Assembly (NCBI GenBank): GCA_964520275.1
Contig: CAZFNY010000016.1
Location: forward strand, 1 to 9,889
Direction of reading: 5' to 3'
Source: Candidatus Woesearchaeota archaeon
GTDB lineage: Archaea; Nanobdellota; Nanobdellia; Pacearchaeales; GW2011-AR1
Length of the DNA: 9,889 bases
In this document: positions 1,242 through 9,068 of the stretch, piece by piece
Position numbering within the stretch: the first letter of the stretch is position 1
Layout of the letters: every line of letters begins with the position of its first letter
Notes under the pieces: model-generated
Told to the model about the DNA's origin: nothing
Databases searched by the model: none
What the model saw: the letters and a program-made list of their open reading frames with translations, nothing else
Position numbers and translations under genes: made by a program

Positions 1242-1973
1242 ATGGATCAAATAAGAGAGGCGTTTCAAAAGGTTAGAGACAATATTAATAATTTAACTTA
1301 CGAAATAGATTCCTTAAAAATAAGCCTAGCAGAAGTTAATTGGAGGCTCTCTAGATTAACAGACGAAATAAAAAGCTTTGTATTTCAACATTCAAATCAA
1401 CCTCAAGACAGCCATTTTACAGGACAATCCATTCCAACACATATCCCACAAATCCCAACACACCCAACACATTCTTCGACAGATAATTTCCATTTTAAGC
1501 CTCAAAAAGCCCAAAATTGGGTTATTTCCACAGGAAATGAAGGGGTTCCAACAGACAGACAGACAGACCAACAGACAGACAGACACACCAGAATACCTCC
1601 ATTTATCCAAGAAAAAACAAACCCCATTCAATCCAAAAACTCTTTGGCAAACGCTTCTGAAATTATTAATTCTCTCAACTCTCTTAAAAAAGAGATACGT
1701 CTCAAATTTAAACGGCTTACTGAGAGAGAGATTCTTGTGTTCTCTACACTCTATCAACTCGACGAGGAAAGAGGGTTTGCTGACTATAAATCCCTCGCCC
1801 AAAAACTTAATCTTACTGAAAGCTCTATTAGAGATTATGTTGGCCGGCTTATAGTCAAGGGAATTCCCGTCGATAAAACCAAATTGAATAACAAAAACAT
1901 CCAATTGAATATTCCAGAAGCCCTTAAACAAACAGCCTCTCTTTCCACAATTTTACAACTTCGAGATCTTTAA
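1242..1973 (+). CDS. Coiled-coil / low-complexity repeat linker / C-terminal TrmB-like wHTH protein (243 aa); paralog of 2277-2915
   Basis: N-terminal heptad-like segment (IREAFQKVRDNINNLTYEIDSLKISLAEVNWRLSRLTDEIKSF). Linker with IPTHIPQIPTHPTH and TDRQTDQQTDRHT repeats. C-terminal LTEREILVFSTLYQLDEERGFADYKSLAQKLNLTESSIRDYVGRLIVKGIPV is a wHTH. Confidence 0.65.
   Translation: MDQIREAFQKVRDNINNLTYEIDSLKISLAEVNWRLSRLTDEIKSFVFQHSNQPQDSHFTGQSIPTHIPQIPTHPTHSSTDNFHFKPQKAQNWVISTGNEGVPTDRQTDQQTDRHTRIPPFIQEKTNPIQSKNSLANASEIINSLNSLKKEIRLKFKRLTEREILVFSTLYQLDEERGFADYKSLAQKLNLTESSIRDYVGRLIVKGIPVDKTKLNNKNIQLNIPEALKQTASLSTILQLRDL
1434..1470 (+). repeat. CCAACAC x3 (1434-1440, 1455-1461, 1464-1470) inside the CDS linker
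   Basis: Read directly; encodes the PTH-rich peptide repeats. Confidence 0.7.
1548..1588 (+). repeat. Tetranucleotide microsatellite: CCA(ACAG)4AC followed by CCA(ACAG)3AC, inside the CDS linker
   Basis: The sequence ccaACAGACAGACAGACAGACccaACAGACAGACAGACacacc was read directly. It encodes TDRQTDQQTDRHT. Confidence 0.85.
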
Positions 1974-1983: not shown

Positions 1984-2276
1984 CGTCCAAACGAATATCT
2001 TCTCTTTCAAGCCCATTAGTTTTTATTCTCGTCTTTCTGTTAAAATTTAGCCTTTTTAAGCCCCTATTTGCTTAATTTTTGGCCTTCTTTTTTCTTATTT
2101 TTGGGTTATTTATTTTTTTATACTCACTTTTAACGTTTTAACCATGATTCTTTAATTCTCCTTTCCAGCATTTATCCATTTTTTTGATGTTTTTTATAAT
2201 TTTTATTTAATTTTAACTCTCACTTTTCGTTTTTTAACACTGTTTTTTCACTGTTTTTCTCACACCTTTCGGATTT

Positions 2277-2915
2277 TTACACTTTTTCTTCATTTTTCTC
2301 TGTTTTTTCAGGCTTTCTGCTACTACCTATCTTAACTTTCACTTTTGATTTTTTTAGTATTTTCTCCTTCATATCTTCTTCAATATAAACTCTCTTTTTT
2401 CCATTCTTTTCAACCACCTCTAATATCAACCCCTCACTTTTCTGTTTTATGCTGTTTATTTGCCCCCTTATAGTTGATCTCTCTTTTCCAAGCATAGCCG
2501 CTAGATCATCATAACTAAGCCTCATCTCTGAATTTAATAATACCCATAAGATTGCCCTTTCAGTAACAGAAAATTGGTCTAATTTTGATGTTTGAACACC
2601 TGTTTGAACACCTGTTTGAACAGCATAAACAGCTGTTTGTTTATCCCAAACACCTCTGGGTGTTTTAAACACCCTTGCAGGCTTCAATTCATTCATCATT
2701 GCAAGAACATTTTTCAATCCTTCCACTTCTCCCTGAATCGACGACAAAACCTCGTTTAAGTCTTCAATCTGTCTTTGTTGTAAATTTTTTTCAGAATTAA
2801 GGTGTTTGATCCAGCCAGTAACAGCAGTAATATCTTTTTTTACACTTTCAAAACTTTTTTTTGTGTCTTCTTCAACACGTCCTACATCTCCTTTTTTGAA
2901 CAGCCATCCAAACAT
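2277..2915 (-). CDS. Coiled-coil / repeat linker / C-terminal wHTH protein (212 aa); paralog of 1242-1973, convergent with it
   Basis: Same architecture as 1242-1973. N-terminal SFESVKKDITAVTGWI aligns with AFQKVRDNINNLTYEI of the paralog, followed by a coiled coil (QIEDLNEVLSSIQGEVEGLKNVL). Linker is VQTGVQTGVQT. The wHTH is VTERAILWVLLNSEMRLSYDDLAAMLGKERSTIRGQINSIKQK, followed by a K/E-rich tail. Confidence 0.65.
   Translation of the reverse strand: MFGWLFKKGDVGRVEEDTKKSFESVKKDITAVTGWIKHLNSEKNLQQRQIEDLNEVLSSIQGEVEGLKNVLAMMNELKPARVFKTPRGVWDKQTAVYAVQTGVQTGVQTSKLDQFSVTERAILWVLLNSEMRLSYDDLAAMLGKERSTIRGQINSIKQKSEGLILEVVEKNGKKRVYIEEDMKEKILKKSKVKVKIGSSRKPEKTEKNEEKV
2589..2624. repeat. 12-bp tandem repeat x3 (TGTTTGAACACC, TGTTTGAACACC, TGTTTGAACAGC) inside the CDS
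   Basis: Read directly; encodes (VQTG)n on the minus strand. Each unit carries the TGTT-NN-AACA dyad seen in the upstream iteron field. Confidence 0.9.
2627..2673. repeat. Intragenic motif cluster: perfect palindrome AAACAGCTGTTT (2627-2638) and AAACACC-tctg-GGTGTTT-t-AAACACC (2648-2673)
   Basis: Read directly; same motif family as 2925-3206. Confidence 0.85.
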
Positions 2916-2924
2916 ACTTTCCCT

Positions 2925-3206
2925 AAAACACCCCCATTTAAAAATCTTTTGTTTTTACGTCGAAAATTTTTCCACTAAAACAGAGAAAAACACTAAAATT
3001 ATCTATCGAAGCCCCTGTTTTTCCTATGGAAAACCCTGGCTGTTTGAAATTTATTTTTTTGGAAAACAGCCTGTTTAAACAGCCACAAACACTTTCAAAC
3101 ACCCAAACAGCAAAAACACCCCCTAAAAACACTCGTTCAAATTACTCTCTCTGCAGTTTTTCTCTCGTCGACAACTAACACAAACAGCTGTTTAAACACC
3201 CCCCCC
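2925..3206. repeat. Non-coding iteron field, G-poor on the + strand. Many AAACA[C/G]C copies, the palindromes CTGTTTAAACAG (3071-3082) and AAACAGCTGTTT (3182-3193), and three direct AAACACCCCC copies (2926-2935, 3114-3123, 3194-3203, the last extended to C8)
   Basis: Read directly. The two annotated ORFs here (2806-3078 +, 2938-3132 -) have junk-like translations. Confidence 0.8.
2936..2945 (-). promoter_or_regulatory. TATA box (minus strand ATTTTTAAAT) for the 2277-2915 gene; a GGGGGTGTTT motif lies between the TATA box and the ATG
   Basis: Centred about 26 nt upstream of the ATG at 2915. The iteron copy at 2925-2935 occupies the expected transcription start region, which is an operator-like position. 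Confidence 0.4.
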
Positions 3207-3242
3207 AAACAAGCATAAACCATCAGATAAGGATTGTGTTAA

Positions 3243-3272: not shown

Positions 3273-3524
3273 ATGAAAAAGATAGTGAGGTTTGAGGATA
3301 TTGCAAGATATGAATCTTTTATTTTTGTCGGTTTGTTGATGACAATAGGAACAACAATAAAACTAGCTTGAGTCTATGATTTTTCTTCAGACTGGTTCTG
3401 GCTTATTGCAGGACTTGGATTGGTCGTTGAAGGCTCAATCTCTCTAATAAAACAGAAAAGATTTGATAAAAAATATAAGCTTATTGATGTTGGAAGTGAA
3501 GAGTATAAAAAGATTTATTCTTAA
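3273..3524 (+). pseudogene. Small two-TM membrane protein ORF (83 codons) interrupted by an in-frame TGA at 3369-3371
   Basis: Hand translation gives MKKIVRFEDIARYESFIFVGLLMTIGTTIKLA*VYDFSSDWFWLIAGLGLVVEGSISLIKQKRFDKKYKLIDVGSEEYKKIYS*. There are hydrophobic helices on both sides of the stop, and TGG to TGA is a single change. Confidence 0.4.
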
Positions 3525-3544: not shown

Positions 3545-3567
3545 TTCACTAAGTTAACCCAAGTGCA
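3545..3567 (+). repeat. Direct repeat copy A: TTCACTAAGTTAACCCAAGTGCA
   Basis: 21/23 identical to copy B. It starts 21 nt after the 3273-3524 stop. Confidence 0.85.
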
Positions 3568-3576
3568 AAAGAAAGC

Positions 3577-3584: not shown

Positions 3585-3639
3585 CTATATTTGCCTTAAA
3601 AGATTAACATTAACTAAATGTTAAAAAAGGAGGTTGAAA

Positions 3640-3807
3640 ATGGCAAAATTAACTGCCTGGCTGATAACACTTGTAGGTGTGCTTTTGATATTACCTTTGC
3701 TTAAGGTAGATATTGGAGCAAGTCTAAGTGCCTGGCTAATTGCATTGGCTTGGTTAATTATTGGTATAAGCAAGCTCATGCGAAACTACGGCAAAAAGAA
3801 GAAATAA
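3640..3807 (+). CDS. Small two-TM membrane protein (55 aa), below the ORF-track length cutoff
   Basis: Hand translation gives MAKLTAWLITLVGVLLILPLLKVDIGASLSAWLIALAWLIIGISKLMRNYGKKKK*. It has a strong SD, two hydrophobic helices and a basic C-terminus. Confidence 0.55.
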   Translation: MAKLTAWLITLVGVLLILPLLKVDIGASLSAWLIALAWLIIGISKLMRNYGKKKK

Positions 3808-3841: not shown

Positions 3842-3905
3842 CTCCTATCTTTTTAATTTATCATTTCCATACTTTTAGTTCTATTTTTCCACTTTCTTTT
3901 ATCCT

Positions 3906-3928
3906 TTCACTAAGCTAACCTAAGTGCA
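3906..3928 (+). repeat. Direct repeat copy B: TTCACTAAGCTAACCTAAGTGCA
   Basis: The arms TTCACTAA / TAAGTGCA are 6/8 complementary around the 7-nt spacer GCTAACC. Homology to copy A resumes at GCAAAAGAAA (3944-3953 versus 3565-3574). Confidence 0.85.
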
Positions 3929-3942
3929 CAACCCACATCATG

Positions 3943-4473: not shown

Positions 4474-4914
4474 ATGGTTATTATTAAATGCAATAGTTGT
4501 GGAAAAGAAACATTCAATCATTCAAAGGGGCTGTGTATTACTTGCTACAAAAAATTAAAATGGAAACCCAAGACGATTATATGTAAAAGATGCAACCAAG
4601 AGAAACCCCATCATGCAAAAGGATATTGTAAAAATTGTTCAAACATATTATTTCATTATGATTTAATCAAAAAACACAATTATAGGAAATGGCATAATAT
4701 AGAGTTGGATTATTATAATAAAATTACCCAGAAATGCGTACTCTGTGGTTTTGACAAAGCTGTAGATTTACACCATTTAGACCAAAATAAAAAGAATAAT
4801 TCAGAGTCTAATCTAATTGGATTATGTCCAAATCACCATAAAATAATTCACCTGCAAGAATATAAAGACAAGATGTTAAAACTTATAGAGAAAAAGAGGA
4901 AGGTAGATTTATGA
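4474..4914 (+). CDS. Tandem zinc-ribbon plus HNH endonuclease domain protein (146 aa)
   Basis: Two copies of C-x2-C-x8-KG-x-C-x2-C (C6/C9/C21/C24 and C37/C40/C52/C55). The C-terminal CVLCG...DLHHLD...N...NLIGLCPNHHKIIH is a classic HNH beta-beta-alpha-metal motif. Its TGA stop overlaps the next ATG (ATGATG). Confidence 0.75.
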   Translation: MVIIKCNSCGKETFNHSKGLCITCYKKLKWKPKTIICKRCNQEKPHHAKGYCKNCSNILFHYDLIKKHNYRKWHNIELDYYNKITQKCVLCGFDKAVDLHHLDQNKKNNSESNLIGLCPNHHKIIHLQEYKDKMLKLIEKKRKVDL

Positions 4915-5741
4915 TGCAAAAAGAGGAAGTGGATAAATACACTGAAAAAATTAAGACAGAGTTAAAGATTAGGGGGAGTAGCCCAAGAACCATAGGGTCT
5001 TATCTTTTCTTTCTCCAACCATTCTTAGAGTCAATTCCAGATCCAAAAAGTGTTGAGGTTGACCAGGTCAAAACCTTTTTAGCCAGCCTAATAGATAGAT
5101 ATAGCAACAAATCCAGGTCTTTGGCTGTCTCTAGTCTTAGATTTTTCTTTAAACGAGTTATAGACCGTCCAGATATTTTTGTTAAGTTAGAAGTTCCAAA
5201 AAAACAAAAAAGACTGCCAGTAGTATTATCTGTCCAAGAAGTTAAAGATTTGTTAGATTCTGCCAATTTTCTTAAAAGTCAACTAATCATAAGGATGTTA
5301 TACTCTTCTGGCCTGAGAGTTTCAGAACTTGTTAATCTTACGCCTATGGATCTAGATTTTCAACAGAATATTGGGTGGGTTAGAAAGGGCAAGGGTAGCA
5401 AGGATAGAATCTTTAAGATAGCCGAAAAGATTAACAAACAACTTCAAAAGTATTTAGATAAGAATCCAGAAAACAAATATCTCTTTTCAAAAGATCGCCC
5501 CATGTCTACTAGGAATGTTCAAATAATCATAAAAAAAGCAGCAAAACGGGCAGGAATTAATAAAAAAGTAACCCCTCACACATTGAGACACAGTTTTGCC
5601 ACCCATTTGTTAGAAGGAGGAGAGAATTTATTTGTCATACAACAGCTATTAGGTCACGAAAACCTCGAAACAACAAGAATTTATGCCCATATCAGCCAAG
5701 AGCAAATCAAGAATGTAAAATCGCCTTTGGACAGGCTATAA
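4911..5741 (+). CDS. Tyrosine recombinase, XerC/XerD/XerA-like (phage integrase family), 276 aa
   Basis: Full catalytic set: R136 (SGLRVSEL), GKGSKDR lysine, H223-TL-R226 (HTLRHSFATHLL), H249 and Y258 (GHENLETTRIYAHI). It also has an N-terminal SAM-like core-binding segment. Confidence 0.9.
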   Translation: MMQKEEVDKYTEKIKTELKIRGSSPRTIGSYLFFLQPFLESIPDPKSVEVDQVKTFLASLIDRYSNKSRSLAVSSLRFFFKRVIDRPDIFVKLEVPKKQKRLPVVLSVQEVKDLLDSANFLKSQLIIRMLYSSGLRVSELVNLTPMDLDFQQNIGWVRKGKGSKDRIFKIAEKINKQLQKYLDKNPENKYLFSKDRPMSTRNVQIIIKKAAKRAGINKKVTPHTLRHSFATHLLEGGENLFVIQQLLGHENLETTRIYAHISQEQIKNVKSPLDRL

Positions 5742-6301: not shown

Positions 6302-6586
6302 ATGGAAAAATTAAATAATTCTCTCAATAAGGTAAGGGTTGGAGAAGATGATCGCGTGCCAATAGAAAGTAATAGGAAGGTATGGTTTTTGTGGACGACT
6401 ATCAGAGGAGATTGGGATGCTGAAGCAATAACAAGAAGTGATTCTGTGATTAATGCTTTAATTAGCTCAGAAGTCGTTAATGTTTTCTGTGTATGGCACG
6501 GAGGGTATAGAACCGATTTATTTTTGATGAATAAAGAAAAATTAATTAATAGATTAAAGAAATTAACTAAAAAAAATGGATACTAA
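6302..6586 (+). CDS. Hypothetical protein (94 aa); overlaps the next ORF by 11 nt across an A8 run
   Basis: ORF with its own TATA box. No motif was recognised, and no serine-recombinase YxRxST..Q motif is present. Confidence 0.45.
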   Translation: MEKLNNSLNKVRVGEDDRVPIESNRKVWFLWTTIRGDWDAEAITRSDSVINALISSEVVNVFCVWHGGYRTDLFLMNKEKLINRLKKLTKKNGY

Positions 6587-7007
6587 TGAAATTGAGATTT
6601 TAAGAAAAGAAAATGAAGAATTAAAAAAAGAGTTGGAAAAATTAAAATCCTTAAGAGTAAACCAGAAAAAGGGCATGACTGAAAAAGCACAAAAAGGAAA
6701 CCCTGTTGCCCGAGTTGCTTTTGGTTATAATATAGTCAAGGGGGTTCTTGTTCCTGCAGAAAATTCTTACATTATTGAAGAAATTTTCCAGGATTTTTTA
6801 AATCAGAATATCAGCCTCACACAGCTAGCCAAAAAATACGGGTTTTCAGTGAATGGATTAAAAAAGATTTTAACAAACTTTACATATATAAGCAAGATAA
6901 AATTTGATAGCAAAGTTTTTGACGGCAATCACCCTCCACTGATTTCTTCCACATTATTCAACCATGTTCAGAACAAATTGGAAAAGTTAGGGATTAAGCA
7001 GAACTAA
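6576..7007 (+). CDS. Orphan serine-recombinase 'Recombinase' (RD, PF07508-like) DNA-binding domain protein with an N-terminal coiled coil and no catalytic resolvase domain (143 aa)
   Basis: The segment VAFGYNIVKGVLVPAENSYIIEEIFQDFLNQNISLTQLAKKYGFSVNGLKKILTNFTYISKIKF...GNHPPLISSTLFNHVQNKL matches the large-serine-recombinase RD pattern (FGY..g.lv..e.E..iv..IF...l.g.S...iA..ln....g...W....v..IL.N..Y.G......H..iis...F..vQ). The N-terminus EIEILRKENEELKKELEKLK is helical and resembles helix alphaE. Confidence 0.65.
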   Translation: MDTNEIEILRKENEELKKELEKLKSLRVNQKKGMTEKAQKGNPVARVAFGYNIVKGVLVPAENSYIIEEIFQDFLNQNISLTQLAKKYGFSVNGLKKILTNFTYISKIKFDSKVFDGNHPPLISSTLFNHVQNKLEKLGIKQN

Positions 7008-7909: not shown

Positions 7910-8311
7910 CTAACGATACGATTTCTGCCTCTTTCTTCTCGCCTTGCTGTCTCCCGGCTTGTAAGTCTCTTTTCTCCTGACATCTGCGACAAGAAGGCTT
8001 CTGTCATACTCTATATATATCCTCTTTAATTCAGAAGATTTTGAAAAATCAACAATTGCCCTGGACAAAGCAACTCTTGAAGCTTCTATCTGGCCTTTTT
8101 CCCCTCCGCCCCTGACCTCAATCTGCACATCAAAATTAATTTTTCCAAGAATCTTTTCTGCTATCCTTAATGGCTCCTCTATCCTTAATCTGTCAAAAAG
8201 CTGAAGAGTCTTGTAATTTTTTTTATTTATAGTTATTCTTCCATTTCCCTCGCTGATGACCGCTCTTGCGACAGCAGCCTTTCTCTTTCCTGAAGTTATT
8301 ATCTCCTTCAT
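7910..8311 (-). CDS. rps9p: 30S ribosomal protein uS9 (archaeal S9p / S16e)
   Basis: GKRKAAVARA..., EVRGGGEKGQIEASRVALSRAIV, C-terminal PGDSKARRKRQKSYR. 4-nt overlap with the uL13 stop. Confidence 0.95.
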   Translation of the reverse strand: MKEIITSGKRKAAVARAVISEGNGRITINKKNYKTLQLFDRLRIEEPLRIAEKILGKINFDVQIEVRGGGEKGQIEASRVALSRAIVDFSKSSELKRIYIEYDRSLLVADVRRKETYKPGDSKARRKRQKSYR

Positions 8312-8700
8312 TGTGAGATGTCCTTTATTCGAATAAATTTATTTTTTTCAGATTCCAAGGCAATTTTTTCAGAAGATTCAAACTCTTTTGGAACCTTCGG
8401 ATAACATTTTATTTTTTTAAAAGCATCTCTCCCTCTCCCAGATCTATGGTCTGGAAGCATACCTCTTATAGCTCTCTTGACAATTAGATGGCTCAGTCTC
8501 GAATGCTTTGGTCCTCTCTGCCCGCTTCCAACTCTGCTTCTTTTTGCCTTAAAATTTTCTTCAATGTTTTTCCTGTTTCCAGTGATAATAACCTGCTCGC
8601 AATTCACAATTGCGATTTCTTCTCCTTTCAATGCTTCTTTAGCAGCATAACTGGCAAGTCTTCCCAAAACAGCGTCTTTTCCGTCGATGATTTTTGTCAT
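8308..8700 (-). CDS. rpl13p: 50S ribosomal protein uL13
   Basis: IIDGKDAVLGRLASYAAKEALKGEEIAIVNCEQVIITG ... AIRGMLP...GRGRDAFKKIKCY. ATGA-type overlaps on both sides. Confidence 0.95.
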   Translation of the reverse strand: MTKIIDGKDAVLGRLASYAAKEALKGEEIAIVNCEQVIITGNRKNIEENFKAKRSRVGSGQRGPKHSRLSHLIVKRAIRGMLPDHRSGRGRDAFKKIKCYPKVPKEFESSEKIALESEKNKFIRIKDISQ

Positions 8701-9068
8701 TTTAGTATCTTTACTCCTTTAGCTTCTGGATTTTTTTTAATTTCTTCAAGTATACTTAATGTCTCGCAACCAGTTTTTAAGAGCTTTTCTCTTGCTTTTT
8801 CTGAAAAATTAAGTGCAGCAATCTTGATTTTTTTGTCAACATTTCCCTGAGAAAGAACTTTTCCAGGAACAACAATTATCTCTCCTGCCTTTGCTTCTGG
8901 ATTTATTTTATCAAGATTAATCTCCACCCTGTTTCTTCTAGAGCCAGTAAGAACAGAAGCTGTTTCCAGCCAGCCTTTATGTTTTTTAGCAGCAATTATT
9001 GTCTCGACTAATTCTGGATTTCTTTTCTTCTGAACTTGTTTTTCAATCTTTGTTTTTGATTTAACCAT
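8697..9068 (-). CDS. rpl18e: 50S ribosomal protein eL18 (L18e)
   Basis: TGSRRNRVEINLDKIN, IVVPGKVLSQGNVDKKIKIAALNFSEKAREKLLKTGCETLSI. It holds the canonical position upstream of uL13-uS9 in archaeal operons. Confidence 0.9.
   Translation of the reverse strand: MVKSKTKIEKQVQKKRNPELVETIIAAKKHKGWLETASVLTGSRRNRVEINLDKINPEAKAGEIIVVPGKVLSQGNVDKKIKIAALNFSEKAREKLLKTGCETLSILEEIKKNPEAKGVKILK

Follow-up and report, generated by a model that had tools for sequence, protein, structure and literature searches.

We analyzed a 9,889-nt stretch of DNA of ~32% GC, referred to here as the window, which contains a segment of the chromosome of a DPANN archaeon (Nanoarchaeota). The window encodes on its minus strand a 212-amino-acid winged helix-turn-helix (wHTH) protein (gene A, positions 2277 to 2915), and we found that this gene is accompanied by two arrays of a single short DNA motif, one in the intergenic region upstream of it and one inside its own coding sequence. 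The repeating unit is a half-site of 6 to 8 bp, RGSTGTTT, which reads AAACASCY on the other strand. Both arrays are conserved in more than 100 relatives of the window, and the codons that make up the intragenic array are constrained at the level of the DNA. The explanation that we favor, and to which we would give about an even chance of being right, is that the arrays are protein-binding sites in double-stranded DNA kept by purifying selection across the Nanoarchaeota, that the product of gene A is their binder, and that it regulates its own gene through cooperative looping and a transcriptional roadblock.

The motif AAACA[C/G]C (AAACASC) was counted on both strands. The window contains 20 matches, compared with 2.77 +/- 1.6 expected from shuffled sequence (the maximum in 200 shuffles was 7), and 17 of the 20 lie within positions 2451 to 3200, which make up 7.6% of the window. 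For the hexamer CTGTTT, 12 of the 17 copies in the window fall within positions 2230 to 3210, as do 6 of the 9 copies of AAACAG. A preliminary description of this DNA had singled out that interval as being saturated with iteron-like copies of the motif, spanning both noncoding DNA and a wHTH gene. Every count and coordinate that it gave was reproduced from the sequence, as was the spread over coding and noncoding DNA. Enrichment over shuffles, together with the conservation and phasing reported below, bears out its view that these are organized, binding-site-like arrays and not a product of chance.

The upstream array (2926 to 3206) comprises 16 half-sites, 12 of which read AAACAS and 4 STGTTT on the plus strand. 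It occupies the divergent intergenic region between gene A and a small open reading frame (ORF) that starts at 3273, and it includes the composites AAACAGCTGTTTAAACACC (3182 to 3200) and CTGTTTAAACAG (3071 to 3082), the latter being an inverse palindrome. The 12-bp palindrome AAACAGCTGTTT starts at 3182 in intergenic DNA and again at 2627 in the coding sequence. Direct copies of AAACACCCCC start at 2926, 3114, and 3194, and a C8 tract begins at 3199. Within gene A, three tandem 12-bp units of TGTTTGAACA[CG]C start at 2589, 2601, and 2613. Inspection of the sequence also revealed a putative gene A promoter (2936 to 2965, minus strand), consisting of a TATA box, ATTTTTAAAT (2936 to 2944, minus strand), placed ~25 nt before the ATG, an A-rich stretch resembling a B recognition element (BRE), and TTTTCGACGT (2956 to 2965).

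In order to place the locus, relatives of gene A were collected. A scan of one genome per GTDB species revealed that gene A is encoded in 378 genomes. More than 2,357 homologues with 65 to 78% identity were recovered; their source labels, where given, were Nanoarchaeota or Woesearchaeota, and many of them reside on contigs of 100 to 670 kb. From the labels, the long contigs, and the 378 species genomes, we conclude that the window is a piece of a DPANN chromosome. The plasmid or viral context suggested by the preliminary description was rejected, since no relative of gene A was found in a viral-contig collection and the chromosomal neighborhood, with ribosomal-protein genes and orc1 nearby, is conserved. 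The comparisons that follow are based on 80 orthologous loci (GTDB species) and the window, 81 loci in all, with gene A set on the plus strand; sequence from the relatives reached 5 to 10 kb to either side of the gene A match. Clustering of ORFs across the 81 loci gave a conserved gene order: array, gene A (plus), gene B (minus), a small wHTH gene (minus), a gene for a 138-amino-acid protein (minus), a PRC-barrel gene (minus), a spacer, Orc1/Cdc6 (plus), and an OB-fold protein. Gene B is present in 78 of the 81 loci, and the small wHTH gene is present in 70.

The density of the 7-mer in the 80 relatives was 12.2 per kb over the 500 bp preceding gene A and 9.6 per kb within the gene; 619 kb of flanking sequence gave 0.49 per kb. 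Two intervals relative to the gene A ATG, -300 to -100 and +240 to +340, are fixed positions of the motif, and +100 to +150 contains one more site. The median is 9 half-sites per 420 bp of upstream sequence, and the 16 of the window are the maximum among the 81 loci. Half-sites in the same orientation show spacing peaks at 10 bp (91 cases), 13 bp (75 cases), 20 bp (47 cases), and 23 bp (80 cases), which indicates helical phasing, and inverted pairs abut at 6 to 7 bp. The extended half-site consensus is RG-S-TGTTT-a; the long C/G string beside the half-site, to which the preliminary description had drawn attention, is not conserved, the usual flank being just RG-STGTTT.

The arrangement of the upstream region also recurs among the loci. 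Toward gene A it runs through an GTGCACTTAGGTTAnCTTAGT element, a distal composite (GTGTTTAAACAGCTGTTT), TTTATCGNCGGAAAA, a central cluster (e.g., CTGTTTaaggGTGTTTAAACAGgCTGTTT), a T-run, AAACAGCTGTTT, in some genomes an element resembling an origin recognition box (ORB), the promoter, ~25 nt, and the ATG. The promoter block TTATCGACGAAAAACAAAAsATTTTTAAA is conserved among the orthologues, and in most genomes the array lies upstream of the BRE and TATA box. The copy at 2926 to 2935, between the TATA box and the ATG, which had been taken to sit in an operator position, is specific to the window, and across the 81 loci the interval from -50 to -1 holds four motif copies. The variant half-site GGACAG/CTGTCC co-occurs upstream and in the coding sequence of the same genomes (Fisher odds ratio, 6.2; p = 9e-4, not corrected for phylogeny). 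When the 17-mer TGTTTAAACAGCTGTTT was used for a DNA-only search of metagenomes, ~50 of the 80 loci returned had gene A directly beside the match, and the others were mostly contig-end cases or GC-richer chance matches. Because a search that used DNA only returned mostly gene A loci, we conclude that array and gene co-occur; they do so in all 80 GTDB species as well. The preliminary description had named a lack of such co-occurrence in related genomes as grounds for refutation.

The comparison narrowed the extent of the element. Of the interval from 2230 to 3210, the conserved parts are 2926 to 3206 and 2577 to 2678, with smaller pieces at 2793 to 2807 and 2736 to 2747. The CTGTTT copies at 2240, 2251, 2300, 2442, and 2452 are not among them. 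At the positions corresponding to 2240 to 2300, the motif was seen in at most 2 of the 81 loci per 50-bp bin, and for 2442 and 2452 in 6 to 10; these copies are probably by-products of T-rich sequence. Nor do the orthologues have a counterpart of AAACAGCC at 1930, which had been counted with the array.

The intragenic array (2577 to 2678) covers codons 80 to 113 of gene A and encodes the peptide ..RVFKTPRGVWDKQTAVYAVQTGVQTGVQT... It contains 7 exact half-sites and near-copies with TGTTCAAACA in place of the intergenic TGTTTAAACA, which is the single change needed to avoid an in-frame TAA stop codon. The peptide KQTAVYAVQTGVQTGVQT is invariant among orthologues, and this alone could account for the three tandem 12-bp repeats, but codon choice goes beyond it. 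Codon analysis of the 81 orthologues revealed that Gln in the array is always encoded by CAA (background frequency, 0.69) and Thr by ACA in 73 to 81 of ~80 sequences per column (background, ~0.5). Gly102 and Gly106 use GGT in 46/47 and 41/43 sequences, respectively, against a background of 0.21, and where Gly in the repeat is replaced, Ala (as GCT) or Pro (as CCT) takes its place, which leaves ACA-GST-GTT intact in the DNA. At Val82, the codon is GTG in 38/41 sequences (background, 0.11), and 12 sequences of an anchored 48-sequence subset have Leu at this position as CTG (background, 0.05), keeping STGTTTAAAACA. Gln88 is CAG in 44/45 sequences, and Ala95 and Ala98 are GCT in 55/56 and 60/60, respectively. 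For random orthologue pairs with the same amino acid, the fraction using the same codon was 0.85 in codons 80 to 113 compared with 0.57 in the equally conserved wHTH. Codons outside the repeat (GTG/CTG TTT AAA ACA; AAA CAG STG TTT; CAA ACA GCT GTT TAT) are equally constrained. Both silent sites, where rare codons such as GTG, CTG, and GGT are used, and amino acid replacements thus keep the DNA motif, demonstrating a DNA-level constraint on these linker codons.

Further inspection of the coding sequence revealed two smaller elements. A half-site at 2793 to 2807 spans codons 37 to 41 (IKHLN; AAA CAC CTT) and is present in 63 of the 81 loci; His38 is CAC in 65/77 sequences (background, 0.26), and Leu39 is CTT in 62/79 (background, 0.24). 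A second motif, TTGTCGTCGATT, of the TTATCGWCG(R) family, lies at 2736 to 2747 in codons 57 to 60 (LSSI; TTR TCG TCG ATA), where Ser58 is TCG in 74/77 sequences and Ser59 in 49/60 (background, 0.05). This motif also occurs upstream of gene A at 3165 to 3174 and 2956 to 2965, with positional peaks at -300, -100, and +100 across the loci. It is found in the coding sequence of gene B as well (1866 to 1877), and within coding sequences it uses rare codons (TCG TCG in A; CCC GTC GAG/GAT in B); a similar sequence, TTATCGTTGG, is located between the small ORBs (mini-ORBs) of the replication origin in relatives. An internal promoter in codons 60 to 79 was considered and rejected because silent-site constraint is absent there. 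As a control, conserved non-Ser codon columns with a codon-bias (Kullback-Leibler) divergence of >1 bit were counted. There were 15 among 153 columns in A and 16 among 131 in B, and none in Orc1, the Recombinase-domain protein (RecD), the small wHTH, PRC, the 138-amino-acid protein (U140), Xer, or L13. In members of the family down to ~35% identity, the V, Q, and T of VQTx persist, while x may be D, P, A, G, or R. In the codon data of the 81 orthologues, the codons for V, Q, and T fall wholly within the TGTTCAAACA core, and their persistence in the distant members, as judged from the protein alignment, fits a conserved core of this sequence.

The product of gene A was predicted to comprise a long N-terminal helix (residues 3 to 77), a disordered linker (residues 81 to 110), a wHTH domain like those of MarR and Lrs14 (residues 117 to 187), and a Lys-rich tail. 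In an AlphaFold2 model, the predicted local distance difference test scores were 36 to 42 for residues 81 to 110, as in disordered segments, and ~78 to 90 for wHTH residues 111 to 180. The intragenic array coincides with the predicted disordered linker, between the 75-residue helix and the wHTH. A Foldseek search with the wHTH returned MepR (3eco), ST1889 (2d1h), and AbfR2 (6cmv), with E values of ~3e-4 to MepR and ST1889. Pfam and NCBIfam searches of A, B, and their neighbors gave for A solely HTH matches below curated cutoffs, a PDB sequence-profile search with gene A returned nothing meaningful, and no Rep, Cdt1, AAA+, or initiator domain was found in it by Pfam/NCBIfam or Foldseek. The family is narrow, since just 259 representative clusters match among 1.84 billion proteins.

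Gene B (1242 to 1973, plus strand, 243 amino acids) is convergent with gene A and is the last gene of an operon on the plus strand that also contains the PRC-barrel gene (151 to 411, 86 amino acids), the gene for the 138-amino-acid protein (457 to 873), and the small wHTH gene (914 to 1210, 98 amino acids). Its product likewise has a helix, a low-complexity linker, and a wHTH, and it has >2,074 homologues, often with HTH_36 and DnaD_N-like matches. A profile comparison of A with B gave an hhalign probability of 82% over 43 HTH columns. Because BLASTP of A against B detected no similarity, the earlier designation of the two genes as paralogues was downgraded to a common architecture with a weak match between the HTH profiles. 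The motif of the arrays is absent from the coding sequence of gene B.

The operon (151 to 1973) is divergent from orc1 across the replication origin, oriC. In the 81 loci, the spacer between the PRC-barrel gene and orc1 measures 420 to 880 bp and contains an ORB on one side (CTTTCCAATAGAAACAAAGGGGTGGGG), a pure A/T block, and mini-ORBs (TTTCCAnnnGAAATnnnGGTGT) beside the orc1 promoter; the longest A/T run in it has a median of 56 bp and a maximum of 165 bp. Pfam analysis confirmed orc1 (Cdc6_C, Cdc6_lid, and AAA). Bases 1 to 150 of the window match the PRC-proximal edge of this spacer and the conserved promoter of the PRC-barrel operon in relatives, which places oriC, with its ORBs and AT-rich unwinding element, and orc1 just beyond the left end of the window. 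A median of 3,269 bp (range, 2,825 to 4,352 bp) separates the gene A ATG from the orc1 ATG. In six metagenome loci (L084, L109, L114, L138, L146, and L150), 4 to 6 kb is inserted between the small wHTH gene and the genes for the 138-amino-acid and PRC-barrel proteins, and there the block of A, B, and small wHTH stays together with the array while the distance to oriC grows. No AT-rich unwinding element was found upstream of gene A, where A/T runs in the window do not exceed 14 bp and the median of the longest run across the loci is 17 bp. Given its distance of ~3.3 kb from orc1 and the lack of an unwinding element, the array is origin proximal and not itself the origin. The loose analogy with ORBs drawn in the preliminary description did not hold in other respects either: the local oriC ORB consensus is TTTCCA-N3-GAAAY-N4-GKGT, and the half-site RGSTGTTT lacks the ORB dyad. 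The oriC mini-ORBs end in AGGTGTTT, which equals one half-site, in ~22 of 51 orc1 upstream regions.

Two ORB-like elements that the preliminary description had overlooked are present in the window itself. The first, TTTTCCATAGGAAAAACAGGGGCTTCGATAG (3003 to 3034, minus strand), is located between the array and the gene A promoter, and a scan with the local ORB consensus, which also picked up the ORBs at oriC, found it at the same position (~-116) in 12 of the 81 loci, the window among them. Similar sequences are the ORBs of the local oriC, that of gene B, and the Sulfolobus solfataricus mORB GATTTTCAGATGAAACG (PMC3089459), and its extended sequence (..GGGGCTTCGACA..) resembles the ORB segment within gene B. 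The second, a full ORB, ATTTCCACAGGAAATGAAGGGGT (1524 to 1546, plus strand), is followed by (ACAG)n at 1551 to 1566 and 1571 to 1582, in the part of gene B that encodes the linker peptide ISTGNEGVPTDRQTDQQTDRHT. ORB matches occur in the coding region of gene B in most loci (115 matches in 81 loci), and the peptide (I/V)S(T/I)GNxGV(P/S)TDRQTDRQTD is encoded by ATTTCCAnnGGAAAynnnGGGGTTyCRACAGACAGACAGAC. The ORB codons are fixed in the 66 orthologues analyzed (Ser96 as TCC in 66/66 [background, 0.07]; Gly101 as GGG in 65/66 [background, 0.22]), and in the same peptide, Asp is GAC in 59/59 (background, 0.20) and Gln is CAG in 60/63 (background, 0.31). Both wHTH genes, then, carry conserved DNA elements in their linker-coding parts. 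PRC-barrel proteins are cell division factors in haloarchaea (bioRxiv 10.1101/2023.03.28.534520), and by analogy the presence of a PRC-barrel gene in the oriC-side operon hints at a link between replication and division.

The simplest candidate for the binder of the arrays is the product of gene A, because a long helix with a tethered wHTH would tolerate an irregular site grammar and because the gene is inseparable from the array. In the model that we envisage, the protein would dimerize through its long N-terminal helix, with each of the two MarR/Lrs14-like wHTH domains on a flexible tether. Domains attached in this way could bind half-sites whether these are direct, inverted, or everted. Cooperativity between sites in helical phase would allow a nucleoprotein complex to assemble on the promoter-distal array and on the intragenic one. 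If the two arrays, ~450 bp from each other, were bridged, the promoter would be looped out and elongation blocked, and looping and roadblock together would amount to a switch-like autoregulation of gene A. The complex would also mark a fixed chromosomal site ~3.3 kb from oriC. Such a system would resemble the autoregulated MarR/Lrs14 regulators (MepR, ST1889, and AbfR2) in its wHTH fold and in having palindromic sites at its own gene. Those regulators dimerize via wHTH-flanking helices and bind one to three operators overlapping the promoter, whereas in gene A the helix of 75 residues stands apart from the wHTH, with a disordered linker of 30 residues between them, 9 to 16 half-sites lie upstream of the TATA box, and the coding sequence itself contains a second array. 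One half-site of the window falls between TATA box and ATG, and the arrays of the orthologues, at -300 to -100, are upstream of the TATA box.

Several observations weigh against this explanation. Gene B and the small wHTH gene co-occur with the array as faithfully as gene A does, so either of their products could be the binder. The location of the array upstream of the BRE and TATA box in most genomes is that of an activator site and not of an operator. The 9 to 16 upstream half-sites, with the intragenic array in addition, far exceed what simple autoregulation needs. Finally, satellite composites are found in or near HAD hydrolase and Recombinase-domain genes, sometimes within coding sequences.

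A serious, if less probable, alternative is that the arrays form an origin-proximal organizing or segregation center resembling a centromere. A and/or B would coat the arrays, and their coiled coils would pair, tether, or position the origin region, perhaps with a link to Orc1 (through the ORBs in the coding sequence of B and upstream of A) or to division (through the PRC-barrel gene); autoregulation would be a side effect. The constant distance to orc1 and oriC is consistent with this, as are the ORBs embedded in B and upstream of A, the placement of the array upstream of the TATA box, the combination of a coiled coil with a DNA-binding domain, and the phasing of sites that are far more numerous than a promoter needs. 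The same is true of the satellite composites (AAACASSTGTTT or STGTTT(N)AAACAS), which are spread over several kilobases outside the gene A locus: 35 copies were found, compared with 0.7 expected, and all 35 are on the side away from oriC, with 0 on the oriC side. Some of them are at promoters, and others are inside HAD hydrolase or Recombinase-domain genes, where they use the rare CTG codon. They occur in just 13 of the 81 loci, however, and where insertions of 4 to 6 kb separate the A-B-small-wHTH block from oriC, the array tracks gene A and not oriC.

Palindromic sites within coding sequences are also a feature of bacterial parS. In Bacillus subtilis, the strongest parS is inside spo0J. Of the ten parS sites of Pseudomonas aeruginosa, nine are located within genes and cluster near oriC (PMC4368675). 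The arrays described here share with the parS/ParB system short palindromes (12 bp) near the origin (3.3 kb from orc1) that are often intragenic and conserved across species and, with B. subtilis parS, the location of sites inside the gene of the presumed binder. They differ in that parS sites are dispersed 16-bp palindromes, whereas here half-sites of 6 to 8 bp are densely arrayed at one locus, and in that the candidate binder is a coiled-coil/MarR-like wHTH protein and not a ParB/CTPase. Moreover, a search for ORFs with a deviant Walker A motif found no ParA/SegA-type ATPase within +/-5 kb in any of the 81 loci.

It is also conceivable, though we judge it unlikely, that gene A is only a target and that the arrays are bound by gene B, the 98-amino-acid small wHTH (914 to 1210), the Recombinase-domain protein, or Orc1, the last by way of the GGTGT of the ORB. 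Gene B and the small wHTH gene are equally syntenic, the oriC mini-ORBs end in a half-site, and some satellite sites are at or within Recombinase-domain genes. Against this, the array is always attached to A, both upstream and inside, and not to B; the coding sequence of B is free of the motif, and its linker carries other elements, namely, the ORB and the ACAG repeats. Isolated half-sites, for their part, lack the ORB dyad, and we retain Orc1 as a minor rival for the half-site binder.

We consider it improbable that the region is a second replication origin or a captured replicon, with the repeats acting as iterons and gene A as a WhiP-like or Rep-like winged-helix initiator. Plasmid iterons (RepA/pPS10, pi/R6K, and TrfA/RK2) are 17- to 22-bp direct repeats that are extrachromosomal and lie beside an AT-rich region and DnaA boxes. 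The arrays resemble them in having many phased repeats beside a winged-helix gene and in the potential for autorepression at inverted copies, but their units are of 6 to 8 bp and mixed orientation, their context is chromosomal and phylum wide, and no Rep domain was found in gene A. An archaeal parallel in layout is the Sulfolobus oriC3-WhiP replicator-initiator pair, in which repeats are next to a winged-helix gene (PMC4010727). Like this pair and like oriC/ORB-Orc1, the locus has repeats by a winged-helix gene, an origin neighborhood, and ORB-like elements (3003 to 3034, the one present in 12 of 81 loci, and 1524 to 1546); integrase and recombinase genes are located on its far side. Unlike an archaeal oriC, it has an array half-site that is not an ORB, no unwinding element (the longest A/T runs compare poorly with those upstream of orc1), and no adjacent initiator gene, A itself being without Rep, Cdt1, or AAA+ domains. 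The canonical oriC is ~3 kb away, upstream of orc1, synteny is chromosomal and conserved across species, and no relatives were found in the viral collection.

Least probable is a signal at the level of RNA (a structured 5' region, an mRNA element, or a small RNA) or a VQTG peptide repeat kept uniform by replication slippage. The three 12-bp units are a true tandem repeat encoding an invariant peptide, many loci have a T-run after the central cluster, and in two loci (L078 and L080, which are identical upstream and in the coding sequence in the stretches shown) all three units have changed together (GTC and ACG), as in concerted evolution. On the other side, noncoding DNA is filled with the half-site in either orientation and at a 10-bp phase, the predicted RNA folding of neither array strand surpassed that of shuffles (z = -1.4 and -1.7), and an Rfam scan of the whole window (E <= 1) matched solely the tRNA-Leu. 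The version that invokes the peptide alone is largely refuted, as codons outside the repeat are equally constrained and amino acids vary while the DNA motif stays.

We also noted further repeated elements and genes at the locus. Direct repeats of AAAGTGARAGTTAA are present on the minus strand at 2332 to 2346 (the end of the gene A coding sequence) and, in the A-B spacer, at 2213 to 2227 and 2120 to 2133. There are 97 copies in the 81 loci, in a single orientation and +400 to +700 from the gene A ATG; in the first copy, which is in the coding sequence, Val192 is GTG in 76/79. This element may signal a 3' end or termination, or it may be a further binding site. The element GTGCACTTAGGTTAnCTTAGT occurs in the window at ~3545 to 3570 and 3905 to 3931, flanking a small ORF (3634 to 3807), and in the 81 loci there are 132 copies, in a single orientation 300 to 1500 bp upstream of gene A, flanking small membrane-protein genes. 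In one relative (L051, 3391 to 4790), a copy overlaps the 5' end of a serine recombinase gene, and these could be recombination or cassette sites. The plus-strand frame at 3273 to 3524 (83 codons) would encode a small hydrophobic protein and has an in-frame TGA at 3369 to 3371; since TGA is a normal stop elsewhere (e.g., 4912 to 4914), it is a pseudogene or two small ORFs. The variable region far upstream of gene A (4474 to 5741 and 6576 to 7007) holds an HNH/zinc-ribbon gene overlapping the gene for a Xer-type integrase and a gene for a Recombinase-domain-only protein. In four relatives (L051, L111, L151, and L155) it holds full serine recombinases and HAD hydrolases, and in some relatives it has satellite AAACAGCTGTTT sites, a few of which are inside coding sequences with the rare CTG. 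The window also encodes a ribosomal-protein run, L18e-L13-S9 (7910 to 9068, minus strand), a tRNA-Leu, the Xer-type integrase, and a patatin-like gene.

Architectural proteins offer a further comparison. Escherichia coli MatP is a ribbon-helix-helix/coiled-coil protein of the terminus region with matS sites. Sulfolobus UBP is a saddle-shaped dimer with hundreds of ucm sites genome wide (PMC12141716). The locus described here shares with both a sequence-specific architectural protein (here a candidate), short motifs, and a special region of the chromosome. Neither UBP nor MatP, in contrast to gene A, has sites embedded in its own coding sequence, and UBP/ucm is a conceptual parallel only. Binding-site arrays, autoregulated wHTH proteins, and intragenic parS sites (PMC4368675) are already known kinds. 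Our literature searches found no description of a phylum-wide array placed in the codons for the disordered linker of its presumed binder, of an ORB with ACAG repeats in a neighboring gene, or of the location of the two next to oriC in DPANN archaea.

Almost all DPANN archaea are uncultured, and to our knowledge, nothing is known experimentally about how their chromosomes are controlled or organized. Three things come together at this locus: a defined DNA motif, a defined candidate for its binder, and a position near oriC that is conserved. It also appears to be a natural case of dual coding, in which VQTGVQTGVQT, the best-conserved "peptide" of a phylum-wide core gene, is conserved because of the DNA that encodes it; ISTGNxGV-TDRQTDRQ of gene B appears to be kept by its encoding DNA in the same way. 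This bears on annotation, on the use of such genes as phylogenetic markers, and on the interpretation of conserved disordered regions. Should the arrays prove to be an origin-proximal organizing center, they would be a first handle on segregation in archaea without known partition systems. We tentatively raise, as an idea with rather low odds, a Nanoarchaeota module for origin-proximal chromosome organization or segregation, in which two coiled-coil/winged-helix proteins would assemble on elements in their own linker codons, the AAACAS arrays in A and the Orc1 ORB with ACAG repeats in B. If such a module exists, it would couple Orc1, origin positioning, and possibly division in a centromere-like system without homologues of ParA/ParB or SegAB, and a function of the DNA would dictate the most conserved "protein" segment of a core gene.

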